In this document: piece after piece, positions 3,039-41,715 of the stretch
How the letters are laid out: the number at the start of each line of letters is the position of its first letter
Position numbering within the stretch: the first letter of the stretch is position 1
NCBI GenBank assembly: GCA_964409875.1
Contig: CAYPEN010000001.1
Location: 198,637 to 262,636, forward strand
Direction: 5' to 3'
DNA from: an uncultured Gammaproteobacteria bacterium
Lineage (GTDB): Bacteria > Patescibacteriota > Microgenomatia > Levybacterales > GWA1-39-11
Length of the DNA stretch: 64,000 nt
The notes under the pieces: model-generated
What the model saw: only the letters and a program-made list of their open reading frames with translations
What the model was told of the DNA's origin: nothing
Databases searched by the model: none
Position numbers and translations under genes: made by a program

Positions 3039-3677
3039 ATGTATAATCATTTTATGCTCGTTTTTATCGATGATTCCGGAGATCCGGGATTTAAATTAGA
3101 AAAAGGTTCCTCAACTCACTTTGTAATATCTTGCATAATTTTTGATGACGATTTGGAAGCAGAAAAAACATCTTTAGCTATTAAAGAACTCAGAAGAAAA
3201 TTAAAAGTTAATGATCGATATGAATTTAAATTTAATAAAACTGATTTACGTTTTAAAAAAGTTTTTTTTGATACGATTTTTCCCTTCAAATTTAGAGTAA
3301 GGGCTATTACGGTTGATAAAACAATAATTCATAGCTCTCGTCTAAGAAATTACAAAGAAAATTTTTATAACTACATCATCATGCAGGTTTTGAAGCAAAG
3401 TAAAGGACATATCAAAAATGCAAGATTAAAATTCGATAAAAGAGGAGAAAAAACATTGAGAGATGAGTTAAGAGTATATTTAAGTCGTGAACTTGATAAT
3501 AGAAGAAATCATATTTTCAGCGATGTAAGATTTGTTGATTCTAGACAGAATACTTTAATTCAACTAGCCGATATGGTTGCCGGCTGTATAACGTCTTTTT
3601 CTAAAGGCAAAGATAGGATTTTCTATAAACAATTAAAGGATAACGGTAGAGTAGAGGATGTCTGGCAGTTTAAATAA
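3039..3677 (+). CDS. DUF3800 family protein
   Basis: N-terminal FIDDSGDPGF motif and ~210 aa length are characteristic of DUF3800. A start at MLVFIDD (3054) is possible. Confidence 0.6.
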   Translation: MYNHFMLVFIDDSGDPGFKLEKGSSTHFVISCIIFDDDLEAEKTSLAIKELRRKLKVNDRYEFKFNKTDLRFKKVFFDTIFPFKFRVRAITVDKTIIHSSRLRNYKENFYNYIIMQVLKQSKGHIKNARLKFDKRGEKTLRDELRVYLSRELDNRRNHIFSDVRFVDSRQNTLIQLADMVAGCITSFSKGKDRIFYKQLKDNGRVEDVWQFK

Positions 3678-3968
3678 TTCGACCCTGCTTTCTATCCAAA
3701 CGTAAGTTTGGAACGCGCACCATACGGTGACAATTCGAAAACAGGGTCTTTGTAAAATTATTATTACATATTGAGAAGTTCTTGTCAATTTCCCCAGCCT
3801 CAAAAAAATTCGCAAAAAACCTCGCTTTCAGGTGCAAGAAGCACTTTGTAATTGTCGTTTTCTCAAGAATTTGAGAATAGAAAGGTGTAACTGAAGGTTG
3901 TCCATGGGTGGTGCCCGCCCCCGGATAGATCCGAGGGCGGACTGGAAGACGGCTGGGAGACGGGAAAC

Positions 3969-4310
3969 CTACTTCGAGCGCAGTGCTCGTTTCGGCCTCT
4001 TTGCCTCTGACAACCTCTTGCTGACCAGTGCCACAACGGCAAGGCGGAACGCATCCTTGGCAATGACTCGCGCTAGCAAGCCATCATTGGTGCGGTCCTG
4101 CCATCGGGTGACCCCGGTCCTAATTGCCTCGGCGACAATGTGGGCCCAGTACTCCGACCTATCGTCGATACGGGACGCTTCTTCCAACTGCTTGTAGAGC
4201 AGTCGGAGGGACTCGTCGTCACTCGACTTAAGGAAGGCATCGACAAGCTTGAGAGCTTGTCTAACACTGATCGCCTCCTTCGCACGAGACAGGGCTTGGG
4301 AAACAAACAT
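3969..4310 (-). CDS. hypothetical protein encoded in a GC-rich island
   Basis: 113-aa ORF with GGAG 8 nt upstream of the ATG. Local GC is far above the surroundings (island ~3890-4400). Confidence 0.45.
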   Translation of the reverse strand: MFVSQALSRAKEAISVRQALKLVDAFLKSSDDESLRLLYKQLEEASRIDDRSEYWAHIVAEAIRTGVTRWQDRTNDGLLARVIAKDAFRLAVVALVSKRLSEAKRPKRALRSK

Positions 4311-4553
4311 AGGGCATACTCCGCTGGGGCCGGTCTAGCCAACCCTCGAAACATTTGAACCTCCTGGTTCGACGTACATCTCTATTTCAAGATGCTGCGA
4401 TCTAGACCCATTCGCGGACAATCCCTAGTCATTCCCGGTTATACATTATAGGGTGAAATTGCAGAATGTCAATACTATAAGCTTAGAAATACTATCTTGC
4501 TGTCTCAAAAAAGAGCATTGCTTTCGTTTTAAGATAGGTTTATAAATGAGTTA

Positions 4554-5216
4554 GTGAATAAAGGATTTAAAAGCTTTATTCTTGCCCTTATTCTTACCGC
4601 AGCTTTTGCTTTTCCGGTTTCTGCTGCAAGCTCCAATTTTTTATCTCAGGCAACAAAATTTTATAACAGAATTTGTAAATTGCGTTATGTTCCGGAAAAT
4701 TATGCTTTTCAGTGCTATGTATTCGATAAAGTCGGAGAGATGGATAGTTCTTTAAACTCGCTTGTTCACCGCGTTTCAACTCTTGAAACCAAAGACAATT
4801 CGCAAGACCAAAAGATACAAGGCCTTCAGGACAAAAACGCCTCGCAAGACGCGGAAATTACAGATTTGAAAACAAAAGTTTCAGAATTAGGAAATTCAAA
4901 ACCCGCAGATCCTACTGATATCATATTTTTCAATGGGAAAGTTAGCCCACAAGGTGCTGTTTCACAAGTTTTCGACGCTCAAAAATATTCAAAAGTTACA
5001 TTTACTTATCAGGGAACATCAAGTGCTTTTGTTGTTGAAGTAAGTGGTAATCAAACTGATTGGTTTACACAATATATAAGAGGAGAAGGAGAAAATAAAG
5101 CAGGTGGCTCCGTAACTTTGGATTCTGCTGGAAGATATTATAGAGTCGAAGCCGGCAGCACTACATTGCCCCCAAATGAAGTACATGAATATGCCTTAGG
5201 ACATTTCTTCAACTAG
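4554..5216 (+). CDS. secreted hypothetical protein with coiled-coil segment
   Basis: N-terminal signal peptide (…LILTAAFAFPVSAASS), then a Q/D/K-rich coiled coil and a beta-rich C-terminus. Confidence 0.55.
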   Translation: MNKGFKSFILALILTAAFAFPVSAASSNFLSQATKFYNRICKLRYVPENYAFQCYVFDKVGEMDSSLNSLVHRVSTLETKDNSQDQKIQGLQDKNASQDAEITDLKTKVSELGNSKPADPTDIIFFNGKVSPQGAVSQVFDAQKYSKVTFTYQGTSSAFVVEVSGNQTDWFTQYIRGEGENKAGGSVTLDSAGRYYRVEAGSTTLPPNEVHEYALGHFFN

Positions 5217-5280
5217 CCTCAAAAAAATGTATATTTTGTTCCATTTTGTTTCCAGATAAGCTGTGATATATTGAATTACC

Positions 5281-6108
5281 ATGAAACCGTACTTCCTCGA
5301 TAATAATTTCGCACTCTATCAAGGTGATTCTTTAGAACTTATGAAGAAATTCCCGGACAACCATTTTGATATGGTTTTTGCTGATCCCCCATACAATCTC
5401 TCAAACGGTGGGTTTACAGTCCACGCAGGAAAGCGAGTAAGTGTTAATAAAGGAAAGTGGGATGAAAGTAAAGGATTTGATGAGGATTATGAATTTCATA
5501 CAAGGTGGTTAAGTGAAGTGAGGCGTGTCTTAAAACCTAATGGTACTGTGTGGGTAAGTGGAACCTATCACTCAATTTATCAATGCGGTCATGCTCTTCA
5601 AAAAGCAGGGTACCACATTTTAAATGATATTGCATGGTTCAAGCCAAATGCATCTCCTAATTTATCTGGTAGATATTTTACGGCAAGCCATGAAACTCTC
5701 ATTTGGGCGCGACGTGACAAAAAAGCAAAGCATATTTTTAATTACAAGGCTATGAAAGAAGGAAATTGGCATTTGTCTGACTTTATAAAAAAGGCTGAAA
5801 AACAAATGAGAAGCGTTTGGGCAATAGGAACTCCAAAGCCCGAAGAAAAAAAATTCGGTAAACATCCGACGCAAAAACCCCTAGCTCTTCTTGAGAGAAT
5901 CATTCTTGCCAGTACCAATAAAGACAGCGTAATTTTGGACCCATTCACAGGCAGTTCAACAACAGGTATTGCTGCAGCAAAATTGGGGCGAAAATTTATC
6001 GGAATTGACACTGAAGAAAATTACCTTAAACTATCGATAAAACGATATAAAGATTTGGATAGCATGCTTTTTAAATATGCAAATAATAACTCGGCTGCAA
6101 GCGATTGA
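5281..6108 (+). CDS. type II DNA methyltransferase, beta class (N6-adenine or N4-cytosine), DpnA-like
   Basis: Motif IV FADPPYNL lies near the N-terminus. Motif I LDPFTGSSTTGIAA lies near the C-terminus (IV..I order, i.e. beta class). Confidence 0.85.
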   Translation: MKPYFLDNNFALYQGDSLELMKKFPDNHFDMVFADPPYNLSNGGFTVHAGKRVSVNKGKWDESKGFDEDYEFHTRWLSEVRRVLKPNGTVWVSGTYHSIYQCGHALQKAGYHILNDIAWFKPNASPNLSGRYFTASHETLIWARRDKKAKHIFNYKAMKEGNWHLSDFIKKAEKQMRSVWAIGTPKPEEKKFGKHPTQKPLALLERIILASTNKDSVILDPFTGSSTTGIAAAKLGRKFIGIDTEENYLKLSIKRYKDLDSMLFKYANNNSAASD

Positions 6109-6694
6109 GAATTTAAAAAAATATATAGGACAGGATTTGCGCACACTTGCTCTCCAATTTGGAATCACCACTTACGAAACAGGAAAACAAAATAAAGGTT
6201 GGAAGGGCCTTGTCTTAGAACGGCTTGCCGGACTTGATAACAATAATGCCAAAGCTCCAAATGGACTCTCTTACGAACTTAAAAGTGTAAGTTTTTATGA
6301 AGTTAAAGGAAATCTTGTTCCAAAAGAAACAATGGCAATTACTATGGTAAACCCGAAAGAGTTATTGGAAAAGTCTTTTTTTGAAAGTCATTGCTGGTAC
6401 AAATTAAAAGCAGTTGTTTTTTGTGCTGTACGGTGGCACGGGAAAAATGCTGAAAGTGCGGAACTAATTGATGTTACAAGCCTTGATTTTCTTGAAACTG
6501 ACACATTAATTAAAGAAATAGAAAAAGACTATGAATTCATACGAAATAAATTAAGAACTCAAGGTTTTGAAGCGCTTACAGGGAAAGATGGAAAATGGAT
6601 ACAAGCCCGAACAAAAGGTGCAGGACATGGGTCGACATCACGGGCTTTTTATGCGAGAAAAGAATTAGTTAAAAAAATCTTCGAACAAACTTAG
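6077..6694 (+). CDS. MutH/Sau3AI-family restriction endonuclease (putative GATC-specific)
   Basis: From memory it aligns with MutH at several points. Examples: KGWKGLVLERLAGL vs MutH KGWIGVLLEIWLGA; ELKSV vs ELKTI; ETMAITMV vs ETTFVCV; GKWIQARTKGAG vs GEYLQIRPKAANAK; FYARKEL vs FYLKKNF. It overlaps the end of the methyltransferase gene. Confidence 0.7.
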   Translation: MQIITRLQAIENLKKYIGQDLRTLALQFGITTYETGKQNKGWKGLVLERLAGLDNNNAKAPNGLSYELKSVSFYEVKGNLVPKETMAITMVNPKELLEKSFFESHCWYKLKAVVFCAVRWHGKNAESAELIDVTSLDFLETDTLIKEIEKDYEFIRNKLRTQGFEALTGKDGKWIQARTKGAGHGSTSRAFYARKELVKKIFEQT

Positions 6695-6732
6695 ACATTC
6701 AATTTCAGAAAAGACCGAAAACATGAGCTAAA

Positions 6733-6760
6733 TTGACTTTTTAAGGAATAGTATTACAAT
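6733..6760 (+). promoter_or_regulatory. sigma70-like promoter (TTGACT -16 nt- TACAAT) upstream of small secreted protein gene
   Basis: TTGACT at 6733-6738 and TACAAT at 6755-6760 with a 16-nt spacer, 7 nt upstream of the ATG at 6767. Confidence 0.4.
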
Positions 6761-6766
6761 CTGATT

Positions 6767-6994
6767 ATGAACTTCAAAAAAGCAATTCTCACATTCCTAG
6801 TTGGAATTTTTCTCTTTAGTGCAGTTGTAACACCTGCATTTGCTAGAGTAAGAGTTAAGGGATACACGAAGAGAAATGGAACTTATGTCGCTCCTCACTA
6901 CAGGACAAATAAAAACTCCTTAAAATATGATAATTGGTCAACAAAAGGAAATATAAATCCTTACACTGGCAAAAAAGGATACAAAAATTTCTAG
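6767..6994 (+). CDS. small secreted/membrane-anchored basic protein (75 aa)
   Basis: Signal peptide (…LFSAVVTPAFA) followed by a basic Tyr/Lys-rich tail. Confidence 0.5.
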   Translation: MNFKKAILTFLVGIFLFSAVVTPAFARVRVKGYTKRNGTYVAPHYRTNKNSLKYDNWSTKGNINPYTGKKGYKNF

Positions 6995-7077
6995 ACTAAG
7001 AAAAATAACCCCCACCTGTTTTATCTAATAGTGATTTTTCCAACTTAATATAGAAATGGCAAACAAGCAGGTATATA

Positions 7078-7524
7078 ATGCTTCCAATGAGTAAGACGCT
7101 CAAAAAACGATTCAAATTTCCCCAGGTTTTGAGTTTTGCCATGAGAGTTATCAAAAGAATTCCTCGCGTAGCGTGGGGAACGGCTGCTGTTTTTGGAGTT
7201 TTTTGCTTGGGCATTATATTTGGGTCCATTTCCCAAAGTGGATATATCAACGAGCAAGCTTCGCAAAAGCAGGGAGAGAAGAGTGCCCAGCTGACGGATG
7301 TCCTCAACAATTATCAAGGACTCTCAAAACTTTTTTACCTGCAGCAGCAAGATATGGATATCATAACCGACACATCTCAATGGTCTACAAATCCCCAAGA
7401 ACTAACTGATGCAATATCAAGCTACAAGCAAAAGAAAAACGAAATCCTTTTCCAATGGGGAAGGCTCTACGAGCTTCGCAGAAAAGCCGGATTGCCAAGC
7501 GACCCGAATTTGAAAGCAGAATAG
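7078..7524 (+). CDS. hypothetical membrane protein
   Basis: One TM segment (AAVFGVFCLGIIFGSI) and a Q-rich region. The true start may be a downstream Met. Confidence 0.4.
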   Translation: MLPMSKTLKKRFKFPQVLSFAMRVIKRIPRVAWGTAAVFGVFCLGIIFGSISQSGYINEQASQKQGEKSAQLTDVLNNYQGLSKLFYLQQQDMDIITDTSQWSTNPQELTDAISSYKQKKNEILFQWGRLYELRRKAGLPSDPNLKAE

Positions 7525-7533
7525 GAACGCATT

Positions 7534-7737
7534 ATGGATAATTTCTTTGGAAATAAAAAACAAAAGGTAGTATGGGCGGTATATGTCGTTCTTGCTGCAA
7601 TAATCTTTATTGGAATAACGACCGACTATTCGTGTTCTGTCGCCAATAAATGCGGACAGCTGATCCCAATCCTTTTCTCCCTGACCCTAATATTTACGGT
7701 CCTATCTTTACTATTCAAATCCTCAAAAAAAAGCTAA
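7534..7737 (+). CDS. small hydrophobic membrane protein (67 aa)
   Basis: Two TM-like segments. Low confidence because of size. Confidence 0.35.
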   Translation: MDNFFGNKKQKVVWAVYVVLAAIIFIGITTDYSCSVANKCGQLIPILFSLTLIFTVLSLLFKSSKKS

Positions 7738-7797
7738 ATTCTGTCGCTACGCTCAAAAAACCTCGCTTTCACGCTCAAAAAGTGGTAGAATTACTTT

Positions 7798-9252
7798 ATG
7801 TTCGAGCAAGCTTTTAAAAATATTGATGATGTTTTGTGGAAAGATTCTGGGGTTTCTAATGAGCTTGATTATGTAGAGCAAACTTCATGGATTCTTTTTC
7901 TAAAATATCTTGATGATTTAGAGGAGACGAAGGAAAAGGAGTCAAAACTTGCCGGAAGATCTTACAAATCAATACTTGAAGACAAATATAAATGGGATAC
8001 ATGGGCTGCGCCAAAAGACTCTAGTGGAAAAATAGATCACCGAATAGCTCTTTCTGGGGAAGATCTCACCGATTTCGTAAATTTAGAATTATTTCCATAT
8101 CTTAAAAAATTTAAGGCAGATGCTAAAAGTCCAGACTCCATTGAATATAAAATAGGTGAGATTTTTAGCGAGTTAAAAAATAAAATTCATAGCGGATATA
8201 CCCTTCGTGAAATATTAAATATCGTAGAGACCCTTCATTTCAGGTCACAAAAAGAAAAGCATGAGCTATCTCATCTATATGAATCAAAAATCAAAAACAT
8301 GGGCAATGCGGGGAGAAATGGGGGGGAGTATTACACACCGCGCCCTCTAATACGAGCTATTGTCAAAGTTGTAAATCCAAAGATAGGAGAGACGGTCTAT
8401 GACGGAGCTGTAGGATCGGCGGGATTTTTGTGTGAGGCATTTGAATACTTAAAAGAAAGCAAGCAACTTTCTACAGAAGATGTAGAAATTCTGCAGAAAA
8501 AAACATTTTATGGGAAGGAGAAAAAGTCTCTTGCTTACATAATAGGTGTAATGAACATGATTCTTCATGGAATAGAAGCTCCAAACATTAAGCACACTAA
8601 TACACTTTCAGAAAATATAATGGATTTTCAGGAAAAAGACCGTTTCAACGTAGTGCTTGCCAATCCGCCTTTTGGTGGTAAGGAACGTTCCGAAGTGCAA
8701 CAAAACTTCCCGATAAAAACAGGCGAAACCGCTTCACTCTTTTTGCAGCACTTTATTAAAATTTTGAAAGCAGGTGGCAAGGCAGGTGTAGTAATTAAAA
8801 ACACTTTTTTGAGCAATACCGACAATGCCACGGTTGCCATACGCAAAACCTTATTGGAAAACTGCAACCTGCACACCGTGTTGGATTTGCCGGGTGGCGC
8901 TTTTACGGGTGCTGGGGTAAAAACAGTCATACTGCTTTTTGAGAAAGGCAAATCGACCCAGAAGGTTTGGTATTACCAGTTGAACCCTGGCCGCAATTTA
9001 GGCAAGACCAATCCATTGAATGATAAAGACTTGGCAGAGTTTGTAGAATTACAAAAAACCTTTGCTGACAGCAAAAATTCTTGGACGGTGAATGTAAAAG
9101 ACATTGACCAAAACACTTTTGATTTGAGTGTAAAAAACCCGAATAAAAAAGAAGAAGTTACGTTACGCCAACCGAAAGATATTGTGGAAGAAATGAAAGC
9201 ATTGGACGAAGAAAATACGAAAATCATAAACTTAATTTTGGAATTGATATGA
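7798..9252 (+). CDS. hsdM: type I restriction-modification methyltransferase subunit HsdM
   Basis: Carries the VLANPPFGG catalytic motif and the AdoMet motif DGAVGSAGFL. Its stop overlaps the hsdS start (ATGA at 9249-9252). Confidence 0.9.
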   Translation: MFEQAFKNIDDVLWKDSGVSNELDYVEQTSWILFLKYLDDLEETKEKESKLAGRSYKSILEDKYKWDTWAAPKDSSGKIDHRIALSGEDLTDFVNLELFPYLKKFKADAKSPDSIEYKIGEIFSELKNKIHSGYTLREILNIVETLHFRSQKEKHELSHLYESKIKNMGNAGRNGGEYYTPRPLIRAIVKVVNPKIGETVYDGAVGSAGFLCEAFEYLKESKQLSTEDVEILQKKTFYGKEKKSLAYIIGVMNMILHGIEAPNIKHTNTLSENIMDFQEKDRFNVVLANPPFGGKERSEVQQNFPIKTGETASLFLQHFIKILKAGGKAGVVIKNTFLSNTDNATVAIRKTLLENCNLHTVLDLPGGAFTGAGVKTVILLFEKGKSTQKVWYYQLNPGRNLGKTNPLNDKDLAEFVELQKTFADSKNSWTVNVKDIDQNTFDLSVKNPNKKEEVTLRQPKDIVEEMKALDEENTKIINLILELI

Positions 9253-10367
9253 AGCAAGGTTGGGAAATAAAGAAGTTGGGTGAAGTTTCAGAAATTCTGA
9301 ATGGTGGAACACCGAAAACAAATATTGCAGAATATTGGGACGATGATATTCATTGGATTACCCCTGCTGATTTAGGAAAGTTAACTAAACCAACAGTAGC
9401 AGATACTCCAAGAAAAATTTCAAGTTTAGGCTTAGAAAAATCGTCTGCAAAATTATTTCCTGAAAATTCAGTAATACTTTCAACGAGAGCTCCAATTGGA
9501 CATTTGGCAATCAATGTAGTTCCTATGAGCACTAATCAAGGGTGTCGTGGAATTGTGCCAAGTAAAAAACTTGATACTTGGTATTTATATTACTTCCTTA
9601 AAAAGAATGTAGAGTTACTTGATAGTTTGGGAACAGGAGCAACCTTTAAAGAGCTTTCAACAAAAGCACTTTCAGGGGTTGAGATCCCCCTTCCCCCTCT
9701 CCCCGAACAACAACGCATTGTTTCTATATTAGATGAAGCCTTTGCCGCCATCACATCGGCAAAAGCAAATGTACAAAAAAACCTCAACAACGCCAAAGAA
9801 CTTTTTGAAAGCTACTTGCAGGGAGTGTTTGAGAATAAGGGTGATGGTTGGGAAGAGAAAAGATTTGATGAAGTCTGTGTTTTGCAAAGGGGATTTGACC
9901 TACCAACTCATTCAAGATTTGAAGGAGATTATCCTTTGGTAAGTTCTAATGGAATTACAGACAATATAAATCAATGGAAAGTTAAAGCGCCAGGTGTTGT
10001 TACAGGTCGTTCAGGCACAATTGGCAATGTTCATTTTATTGAGGAAGATTTTTGGCCACTCAACACAGCACTTTTCATTAAAGATTTTCACGGAAATGAT
10101 GAACGCTTTATTTATTATTTCTTAACGTCTTTTGATTTGAGTAGATATAGCTCAGGAGCAGGTGTACCGACTTTAAATAGAAATAATGTTCACAGCGTAA
10201 GAGTTTGTGTTCCAAAATCAAAAGAAGAACAACAAATCATTGTCAGTCAATTAGATGCCCTGCGAGCGGAAACACAAAAGTTGGAAGCGGTATATCAAAA
10301 GAAAATAGCTGATTTGGAAGAACTGAAAAAATCCATTTTACATAAAGCATTTTCTGGAGAATTATAA
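9249..10367 (+). CDS. hsdS: type I restriction-modification specificity subunit HsdS
   Basis: Conserved central HsdS region (…LPPLPEQQRIVSILDEAFAAI…) and C-terminal coiled-coil (…QKKIADLEELKKSILHKAFSGEL). Sits between hsdM and hsdR. Confidence 0.85.
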   Translation: MKQGWEIKKLGEVSEILNGGTPKTNIAEYWDDDIHWITPADLGKLTKPTVADTPRKISSLGLEKSSAKLFPENSVILSTRAPIGHLAINVVPMSTNQGCRGIVPSKKLDTWYLYYFLKKNVELLDSLGTGATFKELSTKALSGVEIPLPPLPEQQRIVSILDEAFAAITSAKANVQKNLNNAKELFESYLQGVFENKGDGWEEKRFDEVCVLQRGFDLPTHSRFEGDYPLVSSNGITDNINQWKVKAPGVVTGRSGTIGNVHFIEEDFWPLNTALFIKDFHGNDERFIYYFLTSFDLSRYSSGAGVPTLNRNNVHSVRVCVPKSKEEQQIIVSQLDALRAETQKLEAVYQKKIADLEELKKSILHKAFSGEL

Positions 10368-10369
10368 GG

Positions 10370-10425
10370 TTTGTATACATTCATTGACTAAATGTATACA
10401 AACTGGTATACTTTGTATACATTCA
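10370..10425 (+). promoter_or_regulatory. promoter with triple TGTATACA-palindrome operator upstream of fic/hsdR
   Basis: TTGACT (10384-10389), a 17-nt spacer, then TATACT (10407-10412). Three copies of TTTGTATACATTCA (direct, inverted, direct) overlap the -35 to +1 region. Confidence 0.45.
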
Positions 10426-10445
10426 CAAAAAGATGTAAACAAACT

Positions 10446-11585
10446 ATGGATATCAACATTGGAACACTGAAAGAACAAAAAGAGGGGTTTAAGGCTTTTA
10501 TTCCATATACATTTCCTCCCGAAAAAGGTTTTGAATTTACTCCAAGAATAATTAAAAAAGATAATGAAGCGACACGACTTTTAGGTAAGCTTGATGGTAT
10601 CACCAAGTTATTACCTGATGCTGATTTCTTCTTGCTCATGTATCTGCGCAAAGATGCTGCTTCTTCAAGTCAAATAGAGGGAACTATGGCTACCATGGTA
10701 GATGCGATTGAGGCAGAGGTAAACGTAAGCACTAATATCCCGGAGGATGTAGATGACATTTTGCATTACATACAAGCATTAAATTACGGTATAAAACGCG
10801 TTACTTCTGATGATTTTCCAATAAATCTTCGATTTGTTAGAGAACTTCACTTGAAACTTATGAAAGGCGCGCGCGCTACTCATTTTAGTGATCCTGGGGA
10901 ATTTAGAAAAAGTCAGAACTGGATTCAAGGAACAAGGCCCGACAATGCACATTTTGTGCCTCCTCCGGTTGATGAAATGCATCGTGCGCTGAATGAGTTA
11001 GAGGCCTTTATACATGCTGAAGACACAACTCCAACTGTTATTAAAGCGGGGATTATTCATTCACAGTTTGAAACGATTCATCCTTTTCTTGATGGGAATG
11101 GAAGAACAGGTAGAATGTTGCTAACATTTTATCTTTGGAAGGAAGGATATTTAGAAAAGCCAGTACTTTTCTTATCATCTTACTTTAAAAAGCATCAAAA
11201 GCTTTATTACGAGAGGCTTGAAGGATACCATGAGGGCAAAATTGATAAATGGGTGGAATTTTTTCTCGATGGAGTTATTGAGATTGCAACTGAGGCAATC
11301 GGCATAGTTGATAAGATTACTGAATTAAGAGAGCGAGATATTTTAAAAATTCAGAGACTAGGTAAAAGGGCCTCTGAAAGCGCGGCTATGATACTGCCTA
11401 AGTTATATGGGCAACCAATCGTGAATGTCTCGACAGTGCGTGACTGGACAGGATTTACTAGAGCTGGTGCGCAACAGGTTATTGACCGTTTTATCGAAAT
11501 GGGAATACTTTCTCCAAAGGATAAGGATGTGAAGTATGGACAGTCATATATCTATAATGAATATATTCAAATATTTTCAAATTAG
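10446..11585 (+). CDS. fic: Fic family protein (AMPylation/Fido domain)
   Basis: Canonical Fic motif HPFLDGNGRTGR. Start chosen at MDINIG, downstream of the promoter. It is embedded between hsdS and hsdR. Confidence 0.85.
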   Translation: MDINIGTLKEQKEGFKAFIPYTFPPEKGFEFTPRIIKKDNEATRLLGKLDGITKLLPDADFFLLMYLRKDAASSSQIEGTMATMVDAIEAEVNVSTNIPEDVDDILHYIQALNYGIKRVTSDDFPINLRFVRELHLKLMKGARATHFSDPGEFRKSQNWIQGTRPDNAHFVPPPVDEMHRALNELEAFIHAEDTTPTVIKAGIIHSQFETIHPFLDGNGRTGRMLLTFYLWKEGYLEKPVLFLSSYFKKHQKLYYERLEGYHEGKIDKWVEFFLDGVIEIATEAIGIVDKITELRERDILKIQRLGKRASESAAMILPKLYGQPIVNVSTVRDWTGFTRAGAQQVIDRFIEMGILSPKDKDVKYGQSYIYNEYIQIFSN

Positions 11586-11587
11586 CT

Positions 11588-13897
11588 ATGAATGAATCAG
11601 AGACAAGAGCAGAATATATAGATCCAAAATTAAAGGAAAGCGGTTGGGGAGAGGTAGAGGGATCAAAAGTATTGCGAGAACACAGAATTACTGATGGAAG
11701 AATTCTCGTTGGTGGAGCACGCTCGAAGCCCGAAATCGCGGATTATGTTCTCGTGTATAAAAATCAAAAACTAGCCGTCATTGAAGCAAAGCAAATAGAT
11801 CTACCAGCAACGGAAGGTGTAGCGCAGGCAAAAGCATACGCTCATAAGATGCAACTTGAATATACCTATTCCACAAACGGTAAAGAAATTTACGAGATGA
11901 ACATGAAGACAGGGAAGGAATGGTATCTTGAGCGTTTTCCTACTCCTGATGAGTTATGGAATGCTTATTACTTTGACCAAAATGACTGGAAAGAAAAGTT
12001 TGCATCAATTCCAAGCGAAGGCGAATTAGGGAGAAGATATTATCAAGAAACAGCGATTAAAAATGTGCTTGATGCTATTGCGGAAGAAAAAAATAGAGTA
12101 CTTCTTACAATGGCAACCGGAACAGGTAAAACTGCCGTAGCCTTTCAAATAGCTTGGAAACTATATCAAGCTAGATGGAATTTGCAAAGAGACGGAAATC
12201 GTAGGCCAAGAATTTTGTTTTTGGCTGATAGAAATATACTAGCCGATCAAGCATTTAATGCTTTTAGTGCGTTTTCAGAAGATGCATTAGTAAGAATAAA
12301 TCCTCTCGATATCAGGAAGAAGGGATCAGTCCCAACGAATGGAGCAGTGTTCTTTACGATATTTCAAACTTTTATGAGCGGACCTCAAAACACACCTTAT
12401 TTTGGTGAGTATCCACCTGATTTTTTTGATTTCATCATCATAGATGAATGTCATAGGGGAGGAGCAAATGATGAGGGCAACTGGAGAGGAATTTTGGAGT
12501 ACTTTTCACCCGCTGTGCAGCTTGGGCTTACAGCTACTCCGAAAAGAAAAGATAATGTCGATACTTATAGATATTTTGGAGAGCCTGTTTATACATATTC
12601 ACTAAAAGAAGGAATAGGTGATGGATTTCTGACACCATTTAAGGTTAAAAGGATTCAAACAACTCTTGATGAATACATATATACATCGGATGACGAGGTG
12701 GTAGAGGGGGAGATAGAAATGGGCAAGGTCTATACCGAGCCAGATTTTAATAGAATAATCGAGATAAAAGAGAGGGAGGCTAAAAGAGTCAAATTGATGT
12801 TAGAAAATATAAATCAAACAGAAAAAACTATAGTCTTTTGTGCCAATCAAGAGCATGCGTTAGCAGTCAGAGATCTTATAAATCAAATGAATGATGTGAA
12901 GGATCCATTTTATTGTGTAAGGGTTACTGCAAATGATGGGTTTCGAGGTGAGCAATATTTGAGAGAATTTCAGGATAACGAAAAAACTATTCCAACTATT
13001 CTAACTACTTCTCAAAAACTTTCCACTGGTGTTGATGCGAGAAATATCCGAAATATTGTTCTTATGCGACCAATTAATAATATGATTGAATTCAAACAAA
13101 TAATTGGACGGGGCACAAGGCTATTTGACGGTAAAGAATATTTTACTATTATTGATTTTGTAGATGCTTATAAAAATTTTCTTGACCCTGAATGGGACGG
13201 AGAACCTGTTGATCCTGAACCTCCCAGACCTCCTGGTCCTACACCGCTACCACCTAGGCCATGTCCGGTTTGTGGGCAAGCTCCATGTATCTGTGACAAA
13301 GTAGAACCAAAACAGAAAATTAAAATAAAACTTCGTGACGGAAAAGAGCGCGAAATTCAACACATGATTTCCACGTCTTATTGGGGAGCTGATGGTAAGC
13401 CTATGTCTTCAGAAGAATTTATTTACAATTTGTACGGAATATTACCTGACTTTTTTAAAGATGAAGAAGAATTGAGGAAAATATGGTCAAATCCAACAAC
13501 ACGAAGTAAGTTTCTCGAGCGATTTTTTGATATGGGAATTGATATTGAGCAAATCGAAAACCTTTCAAAAATTGTAAGCGGTGAGGATAGTGATTTTTAT
13601 GATGTCTTGCTATTTTTAGCCTACCATAAACCATTAATTACCCGTAAAAAACGAGTTGAAAAAAATAAAAGCGAGATTTTGGAAGGGTTAAATGAAAATG
13701 AGTCAGAATTCCTTAATTTTGTGTTGAGAAAATATGAAGATGATGGGTTTGAGGAACTATCTGAAGAAAAATTGCCAGTTCTTCTAAACTTAAAATATCA
13801 AGCTATTGCGGATGCAGAACAAAAATTGGGAGATGTAGAAAAAATAAGAAATACTTTTTTTGAATTTCAAAAAAAATTATATTCAAACATTCAATAG
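11588..13897 (+). CDS. hsdR: type I restriction enzyme R subunit HsdR
   Basis: HSDR_N-like N-terminus (…RAEYIDPKLKESGW…), Walker A MATGTGKT, and DEAD-like IIIDECHRG. The C-terminal EcoEI_R_C-like helical region is preceded by a Pro-rich linker and a CPVCGQAPCIC zinc-knuckle-like motif. Confidence 0.85.
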   Translation: MNESETRAEYIDPKLKESGWGEVEGSKVLREHRITDGRILVGGARSKPEIADYVLVYKNQKLAVIEAKQIDLPATEGVAQAKAYAHKMQLEYTYSTNGKEIYEMNMKTGKEWYLERFPTPDELWNAYYFDQNDWKEKFASIPSEGELGRRYYQETAIKNVLDAIAEEKNRVLLTMATGTGKTAVAFQIAWKLYQARWNLQRDGNRRPRILFLADRNILADQAFNAFSAFSEDALVRINPLDIRKKGSVPTNGAVFFTIFQTFMSGPQNTPYFGEYPPDFFDFIIIDECHRGGANDEGNWRGILEYFSPAVQLGLTATPKRKDNVDTYRYFGEPVYTYSLKEGIGDGFLTPFKVKRIQTTLDEYIYTSDDEVVEGEIEMGKVYTEPDFNRIIEIKEREAKRVKLMLENINQTEKTIVFCANQEHALAVRDLINQMNDVKDPFYCVRVTANDGFRGEQYLREFQDNEKTIPTILTTSQKLSTGVDARNIRNIVLMRPINNMIEFKQIIGRGTRLFDGKEYFTIIDFVDAYKNFLDPEWDGEPVDPEPPRPPGPTPLPPRPCPVCGQAPCICDKVEPKQKIKIKLRDGKEREIQHMISTSYWGADGKPMSSEEFIYNLYGILPDFFKDEEELRKIWSNPTTRSKFLERFFDMGIDIEQIENLSKIVSGEDSDFYDVLLFLAYHKPLITRKKRVEKNKSEILEGLNENESEFLNFVLRKYEDDGFEELSEEKLPVLLNLKYQAIADAEQKLGDVEKIRNTFFEFQKKLYSNIQ

Positions 13898-13971
13898 CCC
13901 TACTATACTAAAATGGTGTGGAATTGGCCTCAATTGCTTTTGTTTTGTACCAGTAGTATACTTCACCTCAA

Positions 13972-14898
13972 ATGGCGTTGTTTAGAATAAATGGGAAAAA
14001 ATTAAGCCCTGTAAAGGAAATGGGGTTTGATTCTCAATTTAAAAAAGAGAAGGAACTCCAAAATTTTACAGAAAACAATCTTCAAGAACTTTTTGGTCTT
14101 GAATATATTGCTACTGAATTTAATATCGAGACTTTTTGGCTTGACTCTCTGGCATTTGATCCTGCTATCAATTCATTTGTAATCATAGAGTACAAAAAAG
14201 TCGAAAATTTCTCGCTTATGGATCAGGGGCAAACGTATTTGAATCTTGTGTTGGATCACAAGGCTGACGTTTTGCTGGAATATATTACAAAAACAGGAAA
14301 GACAATTGATAAAAAGAGTGTCGATTGGGGACAGACCAGAGTCATGTTCATTGGTCCAAAATTTAATACCTATCAAAAGAGAGCGTTAAGTCCAAATTTA
14401 CCATTTGAATTGTGGGAAGTTGGAATTTATGAGGGGGGACTTATAGAATATGATCAGATAATTCCCGTGGGTGGAGACAAAAAAGTTGAAAAGAGAACTG
14501 TTTCTCTTTCTGGTTCTGCGAGTAAGGAAATTAAAGTATATGCAGTAGAGGATCATCTAAAAAAATCCAACCAGAAAACACAAGATCTTTTTCAGACTAT
14601 CAGAGAGGAAATTTTTTCTTTGAATAGCAAAATTCAGGAAAAACCAGTTGGGAACTACATAGGTTATAAAGTAAATTGGTATAATTTTGCCTCGATCCAT
14701 TTTTACAAAGATTGGTTAAAAATTCATGTTAGAAAGGAAAAGTTGCAAAGTGATAAGGATGGTAGACTGACAAAAATACCCTCATCATATGGATGGGGTA
14801 AAACGCCGCTTTGGTGGATGGATGTTAAAAATGAAAAGGATGTGGAGTATGTATTACCAATAATTAAGGAGTCCTATGATGCATCGCCTGATAAGTAA
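13972..14898 (+). CDS. PD-(D/E)XK-like nuclease-fold protein with uncharacterised C-terminal domain (putative)
   Basis: N-terminal …FDPAINSFVIIEYKK… fits a D…(D/E)xK restriction-endonuclease-like signature. It lies immediately downstream of hsdR on the same strand. Confidence 0.4.
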   Translation: MALFRINGKKLSPVKEMGFDSQFKKEKELQNFTENNLQELFGLEYIATEFNIETFWLDSLAFDPAINSFVIIEYKKVENFSLMDQGQTYLNLVLDHKADVLLEYITKTGKTIDKKSVDWGQTRVMFIGPKFNTYQKRALSPNLPFELWEVGIYEGGLIEYDQIIPVGGDKKVEKRTVSLSGSASKEIKVYAVEDHLKKSNQKTQDLFQTIREEIFSLNSKIQEKPVGNYIGYKVNWYNFASIHFYKDWLKIHVRKEKLQSDKDGRLTKIPSSYGWGKTPLWWMDVKNEKDVEYVLPIIKESYDASPDK

Positions 14899-14904
14899 AT
14901 AAAT

Positions 14905-15663
14905 ATGTCTCAGTACTATAATCCCATCAGAACACGGAATTTGTTTGATCCCAGCTCTTCCGAGCCGTTTCGACTGAGCCGTTCAAAAATCGACCTTTTT
15001 GTAAAGTGTCCCAGGTGCTTTTATATGGATAGGAGGTTGGGAATAGGGCAGCCGCCAGGATATCCTTTTTCTTTAAATTCTGCAGTCGATGCACTTCTCA
15101 AAAAAGAGTTTGATATGCACCGCGCAAACGGCACGCGGCATCCATTGTGTGAAAAGTATGGAATCAACGCAATTCCCTATGCTCACGAGAAAATTGATGA
15201 GTGGAGAGACTCGTTACGACGGGGAATTACTGTCCCAATTGACGGCACTTCGGTAGTTGTAACAGGAGGAGTAGATGACGTTTGGCATGAAAATGGCGAG
15301 CTTATTATCGTTGATTACAAAGCAACGTCAAAAAAAGAAGAAGTAACACTGGATGCAGAGTGGCAAGATGGGTACAAAAGGCAGATGGAAATCTATCAGT
15401 GGCTGTTCCGAAAGAATGGTTTTAACGTTTCTAAAACAGGATATTTTGTGTACTGTAATGGAGACACCGATAAAGAGGCTTTTGATGGGAAGCTGGAGTT
15501 TGAAATAAAACTAATTCCCTATGTTGGTGATGACTCATGGGTCGAGGGAAAAATTTTGGAAGCAATCGAATATCTAAAAAGTGATACCATCCCTGAGAGC
15601 GGGGCGGATTGTGACTTTTGCGCGTATAGAAAAGCCGCGGCAAGTGCAGAATCCAGGGAGTAG
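14905..15663 (+). CDS. Cas4-like / RecB-family PD-(D/E)XK nuclease with Fe-S cysteine motifs
   Basis: N-terminal CPRC. RecB motifs GGVDDVW and IIVDYKATSKK. QxxxY motif QMEIYQWLF. C-terminal CDFC, giving a 4-Cys cluster. It starts 6 nt after the upstream gene. Confidence 0.6.
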   Translation: MSQYYNPIRTRNLFDPSSSEPFRLSRSKIDLFVKCPRCFYMDRRLGIGQPPGYPFSLNSAVDALLKKEFDMHRANGTRHPLCEKYGINAIPYAHEKIDEWRDSLRRGITVPIDGTSVVVTGGVDDVWHENGELIIVDYKATSKKEEVTLDAEWQDGYKRQMEIYQWLFRKNGFNVSKTGYFVYCNGDTDKEAFDGKLEFEIKLIPYVGDDSWVEGKILEAIEYLKSDTIPESGADCDFCAYRKAAASAESRE

Positions 15664-15808
15664 TAACGGGACTGGTCCGCAAATTCCAAATTTCTCTACC
15701 AAAATCCTTTGATTGAGGTAACTATTGCGTCGGATTATTTTTCAATATAAAAGTTGTGGGTGGGAAAATGCCCCCCGGAGCCTTGCGGCTCCGGGGGGCG
15801 AATGCGCC

Positions 15809-16171
15809 TTACTGGCGCGACGTCTGGGTCCTGCTTTCGGACCTTTTCCTCGCTAGCCATTCGGCTATCTGCTCACCTGTGAACGTGAAGCCCGCGTCGT
15901 GCGGGAATCCGGCGATGACCTCCTCTTTGAAATACCGCACATACGGATACAGTTGATCCCTAAGTACATCTGGATTCACACCCGGTGCAAGACCGAGGTG
16001 ATCGCAGAGGATTGAAAGTGCCAGGGCGTAAGGCCCGGCTCCTCCATATCCCCACTCGAACCCGTTATCCGGGTCGCCGTACTGGTCGTAGTTGAAGAGT
16101 TTTTGGCCATTGACCTTGACTTCATCAACCCAGGCACCGTCGCGGGTGCCCACGTAAATCTTACCGGACAA
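15809..16171 (-). CDS. hypothetical protein in GC-rich island (TTG start)
   Basis: 120-aa ORF with AGGAG 6 nt upstream of a TTG start. GC content is far above genome background (island ~15750-16180). Confidence 0.45.
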   Translation of the reverse strand: MSGKIYVGTRDGAWVDEVKVNGQKLFNYDQYGDPDNGFEWGYGGAGPYALALSILCDHLGLAPGVNPDVLRDQLYPYVRYFKEEVIAGFPHDAGFTFTGEQIAEWLARKRSESRTQTSRQ

Positions 16172-16291
16172 GCTACACTCCTAAGTCAGATAGGGAGGAT
16201 TATAGCAAATGCTAGGTTCAAAATCAAACTATAAGATAAAATTTACCCATGCGGGAGAGTCGGCTAGCATGTTTAAATAGGAAAATTCGGG

Positions 16292-16370
16292 CGCGCTTCC
16301 TTGAACTGTAAATCCAATCACACAGAATGCCATGTTTAAAATTTAAAAGCACAAATTCTGAAAATGGCAA
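16292..16370. repeat. direct repeat copy 1 (~78 bp) flanking the Doc/antitoxin cassette
   Basis: cgcgcttccttgaactgtaaatccaatcacacagaatgccatgtttaaaatttaaaag… recurs at 17419-17498 with ~5 mismatches. Confidence 0.8.
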
Positions 16371-16398
16371 GTACACACTAACAATCGACGGTACGAAG

Positions 16399-16782
16399 TT
16401 ATGCAGGTTTTGTGTGGGATTTGAGCCATGAAGAAATTTCCTCCAGAGATAGATTTCGATTATCAACATTTATGGCAAACTCCACCTCTTCATCATGAGA
16501 ATTTATAAGTTGATATCCATTTATTTTGAGAAAAATTCCGGCAGAGGTAAGTGCTGTCCTTTTATTCCCATCAACAAACGGGTGGTTTTTTAGAAGAGAT
16601 TGAAGAAGAGCTGCAGCTTTGGAGAAAATATCAGGATACATTTCTTGCCCGTCATATGTAGTCTGAGGTCTAGCCACAGCCGATTCCAAAAGTCCTAAAT
16701 CTCTCAACCCATGAGAACCTCCAAATTTTTTTATCATCTGGTCATGAATAGCTAAAATTTGGTGAGGAGTAAGGTATTTCAA
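16399..16782 (-). CDS. doc: Doc (death-on-curing) toxin, Fic/Doc family
   Basis: Doc-type motif HPFVDGNKRTAL. 127 aa. Its start overlaps the upstream antitoxin stop. Confidence 0.85.
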   Translation of the reverse strand: MKYLTPHQILAIHDQMIKKFGGSHGLRDLGLLESAVARPQTTYDGQEMYPDIFSKAAALLQSLLKNHPFVDGNKRTALTSAGIFLKINGYQLINSHDEEVEFAINVDNRNLSLEEISSWLKSHTKPA

Positions 16783-17015
16783 CGGTTGGAAAGAGCTTGT
16801 AAAACATCTTTGTGCTCTTCTACAAACTCATCAACCATTTTCATGAATTTTGCGTCGACTCCTGAGTCTTTTGATGCTTGTGGCGTGATGGTGATTTTCT
16901 TGTTTTTTTCTTCCACGATAACTTTATCTCCAGGCTTGATACCTGCAGATGCAAGAACTTTTTGAGGTATGATAATCCCTTGTGAATTTCCAATTTTTAT
17001 AACTGTCTGTTCCAT
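16779..17015 (-). CDS. AbrB/MazE/SpoVT-type antitoxin (Phd-like partner of Doc)
   Basis: …VIKIGNSQGIIIPQKVLASAGIKPGDKVIV… is a swapped-hairpin AbrB/MazE fold signature. 78 aa, in an overlapping operon with doc. Confidence 0.75.
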   Translation of the reverse strand: MEQTVIKIGNSQGIIIPQKVLASAGIKPGDKVIVEEKNKKITITPQASKDSGVDAKFMKMVDEFVEEHKDVLQALSNR

Positions 17016-17418
17016 GTTATTACATGTTATAACGTATTTGTGGCAATGTCAAGGTTTTGTTGGAGCTGAAACTATATTTTCAAAAGCTCTGATGTTGTTA
17101 ATACTTTCCTATCGGTGAAAGTATTCAAAGCCTCTGCCAAATTCTATTTCTTGATACTTTTGTATCGCCAAAAGTATCCAAAAACTCTTTGCTATGCTGT
17201 TCTTTTCTGCCGAAAAAAGAACCAAAAACTCTCGTCGAGGAGCAGTCTTGAACGTTCGGTTTTTCCTTCATTCACTCAAAATACCGGACTTCGCCTTTCT
17301 ATTTTGCCCGTAAAGCGGTCGTTCATTCAGTCAAAATCTCAAGTTCAGACCTGCAATCGACGAATAAAAAAAGGGAACTTTGCAGATTCTGAAAATGGCA
17401 ACCTGAAGCAAATTTTAA

Positions 17419-17498
17419 CGCGCTTCCTTGAACTGTAAATCCAATCGCACAGAATGCCATGTTTAAAATTTAAAAGTGCAGATTCTGAAAAGGGCAAA
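17419..17498. repeat. direct repeat copy 2 (~78 bp) flanking the Doc/antitoxin cassette
   Basis: Matches 16292-16370. A partial extra copy of the repeat end (cagattctgaaaatggcaa) lies just upstream at 17381-17401. Confidence 0.8.
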
Positions 17499-17568
17499 TT
17501 CATGAGAGGCGCGTTGTCTTGAACAGTAAATTTAGCGCGTCAAGTTGTGTGTTATAATCTGTGGCATT

Positions 17569-17901
17569 ATGGTTTCACGTATTGAAATCCGTCCTGAAGG
17601 GTGTGATTGGACTTTTGAGCGGGGAATCATGGCCGGCGAATCATGTGGAATTTCAAATCCCTTGATGGATGGAGGAGAGGAGTTAATTGTTGTAATCTGT
17701 GATGAAAATGATTTGACAACTACCGTAACCCGTCTTTTTGAGGATGAATTTTTTGAAGATAGTAAAACGGGTGAAATTTGCTTTGAAAAAGATCCTGTTG
17801 CAGTGCTTAAATTAGGCGACCCTCATTACATCACCTCTATCCAGTCTCAATTAAACTCGGACAAAATCGGCCTTCGTATTTCCCACCAAAATGTTTTCTA
17901 G
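17569..17901 (+). CDS. hypothetical protein
   Basis: ORF 17545-17901. Start chosen at MVSRIE. No motif recognised. Confidence 0.35.
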   Translation: MVSRIEIRPEGCDWTFERGIMAGESCGISNPLMDGGEELIVVICDENDLTTTVTRLFEDEFFEDSKTGEICFEKDPVAVLKLGDPHYITSIQSQLNSDKIGLRISHQNVF

Positions 17902-17958
17902 CAATTTTTAGCGCATTTTTTCTGGAATTTTTGACTATTAAGATGTACAATCACCCTC

Positions 17959-18606
17959 GTGTCAGAATTTGATATCACTATACGGGCAAAAAACAGGGAA
18001 GCGGCTACTGCATTGGAAAGGGTCGTTGCTGCTAACCCTGACAATTTCGTGCATATGGGAACGGTTATGGTGCCGGGTATTCCGTATGAATTGGAAGGAG
18101 AAGGATCTCTTTTTGACCCCGTCAAAGAGTATTTGAATGAAAATCCCACAATTACCGTTCATGATTTGAAGCACAACAGCCAAAAAACTTGGGAAGAGCA
18201 AGTAAGGGATTTGGGGGCCATGATATTGCTCTCTGAGCGGGCGCTTACCGAAGGAAATGAAGTAGCAAGGGAGGGGATGATGGGATTGTATAACGGAAAA
18301 AGCAAAGGTATTCCGACAAAAATACGCATAAATAAAAGGGGCGAACGGATAGATTTCAATATGTTCCAAAGAGGGGTAATTGACATTTTTAAGGCATCCT
18401 TTCAAGCATATGCTAAAGAGCCCGAACTTCCCAAAAAACGGCCGTCAAGGTTTGTTATGAGGCCGAGCGAAGTGAGAATTTTGATCGAAAATGTTGGCCT
18501 TGCAGGAGAAAAGTTGCCGTTTTCTGAAATTGTGGAATCTGAAGGGGTTAAGCAGCTCGCAACACAAAAATCGAGCGCAATTACACGGATCGGGTGGAAT
18601 CTGTAG
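17959..18606 (+). CDS. hypothetical protein (215 aa)
   Basis: Long ORF with balanced composition. No motif recognised. Confidence 0.45.
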   Translation: MSEFDITIRAKNREAATALERVVAANPDNFVHMGTVMVPGIPYELEGEGSLFDPVKEYLNENPTITVHDLKHNSQKTWEEQVRDLGAMILLSERALTEGNEVAREGMMGLYNGKSKGIPTKIRINKRGERIDFNMFQRGVIDIFKASFQAYAKEPELPKKRPSRFVMRPSEVRILIENVGLAGEKLPFSEIVESEGVKQLATQKSSAITRIGWNL

Positions 18607-41645: not shown

Positions 41646-41715
41646 AAATTCAAAATAAAAAAACTCAGGAAAGAAGAAAGTATTTCAAAAGTTAGCTTTT
41701 TTGTGGTTGGATAAT

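Follow-up and report, generated by a model that had tools for sequence, protein, structure and literature searches.

Results

Gene content and composition of the defense island

The window analyzed in this study is a 64,000-nucleotide (64 kb) stretch of contig CAYPEN010000001.1 from an uncultivated bacterium of Candidatus Levybacteria, within the Patescibacteria or candidate phyla radiation (CPR). The names attached to close homologues agreed with a Levybacteria-like CPR organism. The open reading frames (ORFs) of window positions 1-22 kb were listed and scanned against Pfam, PADLOC, PHROGs and NCBIfam. The scan revealed a defense island between positions ~3,000 and ~17,500, which contained a DUF3800 gene with an adjoining structured RNA, a type II restriction-modification (R-M) pair, a type I R-M operon with an embedded Fic gene, two nuclease genes following this operon, and a Doc/AbrB toxin-antitoxin pair. 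A first-pass annotation of the sequence had claimed five defense-type modules within ~14 kb, and each of them was found in its place with profile support. PADLOC models matched 10 of the 18 island ORFs and 3 of the 51 ORFs at 17.5-64 kb (Fisher p = 2.5e-5, with the 64 kb window alone as the background), so the defense genes were clustered more than expected by chance. The three matches outside the island were to generic domains, and the remainder of the window carried housekeeping genes (ychF, dnaX, proS, hisS, and htrA). Neither a CRISPR array nor cas genes were found within the window.

The guanine-cytosine (GC) profile confirmed the mosaic composition noted in the first-pass annotation, with values spanning 29-57% around a window mean of 41.7%. 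The DUF3800 gene had a GC content of 29%, the R-M, Fic, and S18 genes had 34-38%, and two ORFs were GC-rich, at 57% (3969-4310; 68% at third codon positions, GC3) and 56% (15809-16171; GC3 65%). The sharp steps between the cassettes (29/57/37/56%) implied several donors.

Variability of the island site among relatives

Two relatives (L013 and L016), whose NAGPA proteins were 84-86% identical to that of the window, were syntenic with the window from ~34 kb down to ~18.62 kb. Beyond this point, both carried metK, small genes, and VIT1, and no island. A third relative (L009) shared the left flank, which consisted of a DUF167 gene and a 446-aa gene (84% identity), and continued with a DUF4230 gene, small ORFs, a different helicase-nuclease, and a fused methylase-specificity gene. 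Gene order across the site was not conserved, with metK in place of the island in L013 and L016 and another R-M system in L009. Because the island was lacking in the former and a different R-M system was present in the latter, the region is variable and holds defense genes in at least two lineages. These results bore out the description of a dense, compositionally mosaic defense island at a variable chromosomal site.

This analysis established what the genes are, which catalytic motifs they carry, that their GC content is mosaic, that defense genes are enriched compared with the remaining window, and that relatives lack the region or have other genes in its place; the activities of the individual modules are predictions made from sequence. 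With these results, the region from ~3,000 to ~17,500 is very likely a chromosomal defense island built up piecemeal from horizontally acquired cassettes at a synteny break. The concept of defense islands, reportedly put forward by Makarova et al. in 2011, describes variable sites of the chromosome where genes for R-M, toxin-antitoxin, and abortive-infection systems form clusters. The island resembled such clusters in its dense R-M, toxin-antitoxin, abortive-infection-like, and candidate systems, its GC mosaic, its absence or replacement in relatives, and its interspersed orphan ORFs. It differed from them in its host, which has a small CPR genome, in its edges, which carried no recombinase or tRNA, and in its flanks, which were not adjacent in any relative.

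Several observations weigh against the piecemeal acquisition of a defense island at this site. No relative was found in which both flanks adjoined each other, and a scan of genome contigs with the 446-aa flank protein yielded no relative. For this reason, the site is described as a synteny breakpoint; its left edge, which falls between 1,932 and 3,038, is unproven, and so is insertion as a simple event. Exact-protein look-ups showed the same arrangement in all three metagenomes containing the organism, with no strain-level variation. Profile and repeat scans found no integrase, transposase, relaxase, phage structural gene, tRNA, or att-like boundary at the island, which left the route of acquisition without a marker. 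Of the recombinase, tRNA, and att repeats that define a genomic island or integrative element, none was present, and the sole repeats were internal ones around the Doc-AbrB pair. Finally, several island ORFs (4554-5216, 6767-6994, and 7078-7524) resembled secreted or membrane proteins and not defense genes. In the metagenomes, contigs broke at ~5341, 8781, 9839, and 18780.

The 14.5 kb island is genuine and ordinary, consisting mostly of known kinds of parts. The genomes of CPR bacteria are very small and carry few CRISPR systems, and the five or six defense modules layered within 14.5 kb show how large a part of such a genome can be given to immunity. The most useful leads in the island are the DUF3800 and RNA cassette and the Fic gene within the type I operon.

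Two GC-rich units on the minus strand

The first-pass annotation had described the two GC-rich ORFs as single-gene insertions. This description held for their composition and for their arrangement as independent minus-strand units, while only the ORF at 15809-16171 could be assigned to a known family. The two ORFs were unrelated to each other, and each came with a promoter-like site and a downstream hairpin; the scan called the first hairpin terminator-like, and the second was read from the sequence. In the first unit (3815-4472, minus strand), a promoter and terminator scan located a perfect sigma-70 promoter (4472-4445), a candidate ORF of 113 aa (4310-3969), and a terminator (3839-3820). 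The ORF had no homologue among 1.84 billion representative proteins, and the unit matched no Rfam family and no phage or plasmid DNA. Membership of this ORF in the neighboring DUF3800 module was considered and rejected, because the homology of that cassette ended at 3771.

There is a real possibility, although it is not the favored reading, that no inserted protein gene is present in the patch at 3815-4472, which would then be a gene for a non-coding RNA or a piece of foreign DNA. The lack of any homologous protein would fit such an origin, as would the perfect promoter and the terminator, which frame a transcript of ~620 nt, and the patch folded better than shuffled sequences (z = -3.4). However, the opposite strand folded equally well (z = -3.6), so that folding did not discriminate between the strands, and no Rfam family was matched. 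The GC3 of 68% exceeded the overall GC content of 57%, as expected of a coding sequence from a GC-rich donor, and a GGAG sequence stood 9 nt upstream of the ATG, both of which argue for a protein-coding insertion.

The second unit (15769-16227, minus strand) contained the gene of a DUF6166 protein (16171-15809; Pfam PF19663, 6e-15) together with a promoter-like site, a ribosome-binding site, and a GC hairpin at 15769-15798 that is likely the terminator; the ribosome-binding site and the hairpin were read from the sequence by eye. The gene had no phage or plasmid match, and a literature search found no mention of DUF6166. Further short GC-rich patches, with up to 65% GC in a genome of 42% GC, were observed at 41601-42551, 52601-53001, and 20551-20851 and resembled the two units of the island. 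The ORFs overlapping the first two of these patches (41642-41989, 42105-42506, and 52497-53009) had no Pfam match.

The DUF3800 gene and its convergent RNA

The DUF3800 gene (3039-3677, plus strand) encoded a protein of 212 aa with a predicted RNase H-like DEDD nuclease fold. The family assignment made in the first-pass annotation was supported by Pfam (PF12686, 9e-18) and by the PADLOC candidate family PDC-M04A (2e-14), whereas a PDB sequence search with the protein returned nothing useful. When the protein was aligned with 74 RNA-linked DUF3800 homologues, residues D11, E62, D133, and D178 were conserved at 95-100%. These four residues form a DEDD set, which agrees with a published report of an RNase H-like fold (PMC13594972).

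A DUF3800-IX RNA of 72 nt was located directly after the gene on the opposite strand (3677-3748, minus strand; Rfam RF02968, 64.4 bits against a gathering score of 36.8, E = 9e-12, full model). This RNA had been missed in the earlier reading of the window and belongs to the DUF3800 module. The RNA was convergent with the gene and ended on the last base of its stop codon. It folded with a z-score of -3.7, and two of its U-G pairs fitted the minus strand only. Just upstream of the RNA, a near-consensus promoter-like site (TTGACA-17-AATAAT with an upstream TG) was found at 3760-3788 on the minus strand.

The RNA core was scanned for in metagenome and viral contigs, which yielded 136 loci. A DUF3800 gene was detectable at 83 of them, and it was convergent in 78 of these 83, with its stop codon 25-40 nt past the RNA core, as in the window. 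Among the metagenome loci with enough downstream sequence, 75 of 100 had the gene. Of 131 loci, 44% had a sigma-70-like promoter upstream of the RNA, always in the same place, compared with 1% of control regions. DNA homology between the window and other DUF3800-IX cassettes spanned 3041-3771 only, which defined the unit as a 730-bp cassette of gene and RNA. In a qualitative listing, a PADLOC scan of the neighbors of these cassettes showed just a few R-M genes. Eleven classes of DUF3800-associated RNAs of unknown function have been described (Weinberg et al. 2017, PMC5737381). The window RNA agreed with that description in its full-model match to DUF3800-IX and in adjoining a DUF3800 gene. New here are the nearly constant convergent orientation with the RNA ending at the gene stop (78/83), the frequent sigma-70-like promoter of the RNA itself, and the DEDD residues in the protein partners.

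The small DUF3800 nuclease gene with its own structured RNA is the least understood part of the island. The RNA would be transcribed from its own promoter, convergent with the gene, and may be a partner that the nuclease requires, serving it as a regulator or antitoxin or else as a cofactor. We tentatively raise the possibility that the 730-bp cassette is a mobile immune or toxin module, complete with its two components, in which a DEDD RNase H-like nuclease depends on the RNA; the RNA could be its antitoxin or regulator, or alternatively its cofactor or guide. The fixed tail-to-tail geometry, the promoter of the RNA, the conserved catalytic residues, and the place at the edge of a defense island allow such a reading. 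If true, it would explain what the eleven classes of DUF3800-associated RNAs do, a question that dates from 2017. In any case, the nuclease and its cognate RNA form a compact natural example that is open to direct testing.

The type I restriction-modification operon with an embedded Fic gene

The complete type I system read in the first-pass annotation as hsdM-hsdS-fic-hsdR was confirmed by profiles for all four genes, which lie on the plus strand. HsdM (7798-9252) matched Pfam N6_Mtase (7e-65) and PADLOC MTase_I (1.8e-166) and carried an NPPF motif. HsdS (9249-10367) contained two target-recognition domains, which matched Pfam Methylase_S in two stretches (2.6e-54; PADLOC 3.8e-88). The Fic gene (10392-11585, with the start placed at 10446 by gene callers) encoded a SoFic-like AMP-transferase (PADLOC SoFic, 1.8e-104, full length), and HsdR (11588-13897) carried GTGKT and DECH motifs. 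HsdR passed the EcoAI/FtnUII equivalog model of NCBIfam (NF046051, 825 bits against a cut-off of 550), which assigned the system to type IB. The single operon contained the components of an EcoAI-type system: HsdM, the two target-recognition domains of HsdS, and the helicase and nuclease motifs of HsdR. The genes were tightly packed: hsdM and hsdS overlapped by 4 nt, and fic ended 2 nt before hsdR. Contigs from two independent metagenome assemblies (L006 and L007) started exactly at ~9839, between the two halves of hsdS, and these starts may reflect population variation in the first target-recognition domain.

The Fic protein contained the AMPylation motif HPFLDGNGRTGR (canonical HxFxDGNGRxxR) and an N-terminal inhibitory motif, SSQIEG, of the (S/T)xxxE(G/N) type. 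It aligned to positions 5-359 of the 361 positions of the PADLOC SoFic model and, over residues 53-314, to the SoFic structure 9tch in the PDB (5e-22). Since it scored under the cut-off of the NCBIfam SoFic equivalog (130 bits against 550), it is best named "SoFic-like". SoFic itself has experimental support as an abortive-infection effector, with EF-Tu as its reported target (PMC12249575), and the presence of a Fic gene in a type I locus has a precedent in Histophilus somni (PMC3339403). The window protein is similar to SoFic in its length, its full-length PADLOC match, and its active-site and inhibitory motifs. Unlike SoFic, it is encoded within an R-M operon instead of standing alone, and hsdR follows directly where a small AS1-like antitoxin gene would be found downstream.

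The short gap between hsdS and fic contained a perfect palindrome with a 15-bp stem that overlapped a promoter-like site (10369-10412, with the palindrome extending to 10403). The placement of this palindrome suggests an operator for fic, which would give the gene its own regulation. A structure with the SoFic sequence, 3eqx, has been deposited as a 'Fic domain containing transcriptional regulator'.

The position of fic has a parallel in the EcoprrI locus, where the prrC anticodon nuclease gene lies between hsdS and hsdR of a type I R-M system. Both loci place the gene of a latent toxic effector between hsdS and hsdR, tightly coupled to hsdR. In the window, however, the effector is a SoFic-like AMP-transferase, the R-M system is of the EcoAI family (IB), and the coupling is read from gene order. 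On the basis of this parallel, a back-up role when restriction is inhibited is proposed: Fic would act as an abortive-infection back-up that AMPylates host proteins, possibly EF-Tu, the reported target of SoFic. A Fic effector inside a type I restriction operon is a compact and directly testable example.

A related block was found in a genome of Magasanikiibacteriota (L057, 1680-10906), with the order hsdM, two extra genes, hsdS, one extra gene, hsdR, and S18. Its hsdM and hsdR products were 76% and 71% identical to the window proteins, which pointed to an exchange of the hsdMSR-S18 block between CPR lineages, while the embedded genes (431, 288, and 339 aa) differed from those of the window. 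R-M-centered cassettes thus move between CPR lineages, and the type I operons of these bacteria seem to serve accessory genes as landing pads.

The Doc/AbrB pair and the bracketing repeats

The toxin-antitoxin pair named in the first-pass annotation was recovered on the minus strand near the right end of the island. Doc (16399-16782), a toxin with a Fic-fold kinase domain, exceeded the cut-off of TIGR01550 (84 bits against 38.65) and contained the HPFVDGNKR motif. The antitoxin (16779-17015), of the AbrB/MazE fold (Pfam MazE_antitoxin, 1.9e-11), overlapped doc by 4 nt. A Doc kinase motif preceded by an overlapping small antitoxin gene is the layout of Doc/Phd-type systems. The pair and the ORF at 17115-17438 were bracketed by a direct repeat of 79-93 nt (93.7% identity over 79 nt), with the left copy at 16283-16375 and the right copy at 17410-17502. 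The right copy coincided with the right edge of the island, since the next gene (17569-17901) belonged to a backbone family. A TTGAAC(T/A)GTAAAT motif occurred three times in the region of this repeat. As a layer of the island, the cassette would supply a Doc kinase toxin and its AbrB-fold antitoxin between 79-nt direct repeats.

Fic and Doc/AbrB might instead be addiction or stabilization modules that keep the island in the genome and have no direct anti-phage role, which we consider unlikely. Pairs of Doc and antitoxin are classical post-segregational killing systems, the repeats bracket the Doc cassette as they would a selfish insert, and the PADLOC matches of Doc were partial and to candidate families, all of which would suit such a role. 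The Fic protein, in contrast, belonged over its full length to the experimentally validated SoFic defense family (1.8e-104), and its gene lay within the restriction operon, 2 nt upstream of hsdR. Moreover, addiction and anti-phage roles are not mutually exclusive.

Two nuclease genes downstream of hsdR

Two PD-(D/E)XK nuclease genes followed hsdR on the plus strand, as the first-pass annotation had stated. The same annotation had listed 13972-15663 as an uncharacterized candidate for a new defense function, which was not borne out: 13972-14898 encoded PDC-S18, a family already catalogued in PADLOC (PDLC04945, 4.8e-83, full length), and 14905-15663 encoded a Cas4-like nuclease. Residues 1-302 of the former aligned to positions 1-301 of the 302 positions of the model. 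The family had 2,836 homologues at E <= 1e-5, and residues D58, E73, K75, and Q85 were invariant in an alignment of 38 of its members. The AlphaFold model of PDC-S18 (predicted local distance difference test score 84.6) had two domains, predicted to be a NucS/Shedu-like PD-(D/E)XK nuclease domain and a C-terminal DUF5655 domain, which matched YdhG/YjbR/frataxin-like folds (9.8). Unlike Shedu (SduA) and NucS, PDC-S18 had no DUF4263 (Shedu) or NucS sequence signature and carried the YdhG/YjbR-like DUF5655 fold at its C-terminus. PDC-S18 is a computational PADLOC candidate family, and a full-text literature search found no mention of it. With a predicted fold, this candidate is now directly testable.

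The Cas4-like gene started 6 nt after that of PDC-S18, and the two nucleases are probably co-transcribed. The protein had CxxC pairs at both ends and matched Pfam PDDEXK_1 (7.5e-14) and PADLOC Cas4 (3.7e-11). It scored below the cut-off for Cas4 proper (TIGR00372, 33 bits against 65), in a window that held no cas genes or arrays. PDB sequence searches with either nuclease returned nothing useful. An obligate two-gene system of PDC-S18 and the Cas4-like nuclease was considered and rejected, because a Cas4-like homologue was near S18 in only 2 of the 80 genome loci whose S18 neighborhoods were compared (CPR bacteria, Bacteroidota, Bacillus, cyanobacteria, and DPANN archaea). HsdR-like genes were the commonest neighbors of S18, forming the largest cluster (10 ORFs) of the 234 clusters among 273 flanking ORFs. 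A qualitative PADLOC listing of the 142 immediate neighbors was highly diverse and included type I R-M, Mokosh, Hhe, and other PDC families.

Probable assembly of the island from separate cassettes

The delivery of all systems together by a single integrated mobile element, such as an integrative and conjugative element, a prophage, or a satellite, of which the block would be a remnant, is improbable. Such an element could account for the small ORF at 6767-6994, which matched a phage protein family (phrog_29674), for the 79-93 nt direct repeats around Doc-AbrB and an 18-nt exact repeat at 3813 and 7754, and for the movement of hsdMSR-S18 as a unit seen in L057. It is opposed by the absence of an integrase, transposase, relaxase, phage structural gene, or tRNA, by the several donors implied by the sharp GC steps between neighboring cassettes (29%, 57%, 37%, and 56%), and by the DNA homology of the DUF3800 cassette to other loci, which stopped at 3771.

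The 18-nt match formed the first part of a 29-nt direct repeat (3813-3841 and 7754-7782), whose copies flanked a segment with the GC-rich unit and both type II R-M genes; the right copy stood just upstream of hsdM. Being too long for a likely chance match, this repeat could be a junction or a regulatory element.

The type II restriction-modification pair and depletion of GATC

The type II pair consisted of a DNA methyltransferase gene (5281-6108, plus strand) and an endonuclease gene (6077-6694, plus strand) that overlapped by 32 nt. The methyltransferase, an N6A/N4C enzyme, matched Pfam N6_N4_Mtase (2e-60) and PADLOC MTase_II (1.8e-102), and was assigned to the beta class because the DPPY motif (residue 35) preceded the S-adenosylmethionine-binding motif FTGSSTTG. 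The endonuclease, of 205 aa, matched Pfam MutH (1e-7) and PADLOC REase_II, as well as the NCBIfam models of Sau3AI (8e-14) and MutH (3e-12), both under their cut-offs. It aligned over nearly its full length (residues 9-198) with the MutH structure 1azo in the PDB (1e-6), and the catalytic residues D54...E66-L-K68 were intact. The motifs, profiles, and overlap thus agreed with the first-pass description of a DPPY beta-class methyltransferase overlapping a MutH/Sau3AI-family endonuclease, and an adjacent methylase and endonuclease with intact catalytic motifs make up a type II R-M system.

In genomes that bear R-M systems, restriction pressure is expected to leave palindromes depleted. GATC was the most depleted of the 256 tetranucleotides in the window, with an observed/expected ratio of 0.47. 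The backbone had a ratio of 0.38 and the island one of 0.70; two relatives gave values of 0.27-0.34, and the island-rich contig of a further relative, L009, gave 0.96. The lower values in the backbone and the two relatives, compared with that of the island, fit a long-standing restriction of GATC in the lineage and a younger, imported origin of the island DNA. On this indirect evidence, the MutH-like nuclease is probably specific for GATC. In the proposed scheme, the methylase would protect the host DNA, and the MutH/Sau3AI-like nuclease would cut unmodified DNA, probably at GATC. The endonuclease was similar to the GATC endonucleases Sau3AI and MutH in its fold, its D...ELK motif, its overlap with a methylase gene, and the strong depletion of GATC. 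It differed from Sau3AI, which has two domains (475-aa model), in being single-domain and, at 205 aa, the size of MutH. The methylase was most similar to CcrM-type enzymes, which act on GANTC, yet GANTC was not depleted (observed/expected 0.93).

Although the near full-length alignment with MutH (1azo 1e-6; NCBIfam MutH 3e-12) would suit a methyl-directed mismatch-repair module of the Dam/MutH kind in place of an R-M system, this is very improbable, since the nuclease scored below the MutH cut-offs (46 bits against 243) and slightly better with Sau3AI, its partner was a beta-class N6_N4 methylase with the gene overlap typical of R-M, PADLOC labeled the two as MTase_II and REase_II, and the most depleted tetranucleotide was GATC, a mark generally expected of restriction.

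Flanking genes and other features

The segments beside the island that the first-pass annotation had put forward as prime candidates for new defense functions mostly did not hold up. The segment at 592-2997 contained not one but three ORFs, with a backbone-like GC content, and no defense evidence was obtained for any of them. A homologue of the small gene at 1929-2252 adjoined a 447-aa gene in L009, and 2230-2997 encoded a phosphohydrolase (PHROG, 8e-20). Within 17545-18606, the gene at 17569-17901 was assigned to the backbone because it belonged to a small-gene family found next to metK in L013 and L016 (phmmer, 3e-10), and the ORF at 17959-18606 was an orphan of 215 aa. This orphan stood at the position taken by metK in L013 (13240-14352) and L016 (10396-11508). 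A metK gene, encoding S-adenosylmethionine synthetase, was not found anywhere in the 64 kb window. For genome scanning, these results show that genes of no assigned function beside an island are not automatically defense candidates, as most of those proposed here were backbone genes or orphans.

Three further ORFs lay on the plus strand inside the island. The ORF at 4554-5216 encoded a 220-aa protein in which a signal peptide followed by a coiled-coil region was read from the sequence; it had no PADLOC or PHROG match, its Pfam coiled-coil matches were sub-threshold, and it is probably non-defense cargo. The 75-aa protein encoded at 6767-6994 had a hydrophobic N-terminus and is probably secreted; it matched phrog_29674 (2.4e-22) and no defense model. 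The 148-aa protein encoded at 7078-7524 had a hydrophobic segment, is possibly a membrane protein, and matched nothing in Pfam, PADLOC, or PHROGs.

Outside the island, families of repeated intergenic elements of 60-100 nt were observed at 40088-40226, 58784-58850/59609-59675, 44498-44596/55417-55512, and 48455-48543/61724-61813. These families included a 57-nt tandem repeat with 2.4 copies at 97% identity.

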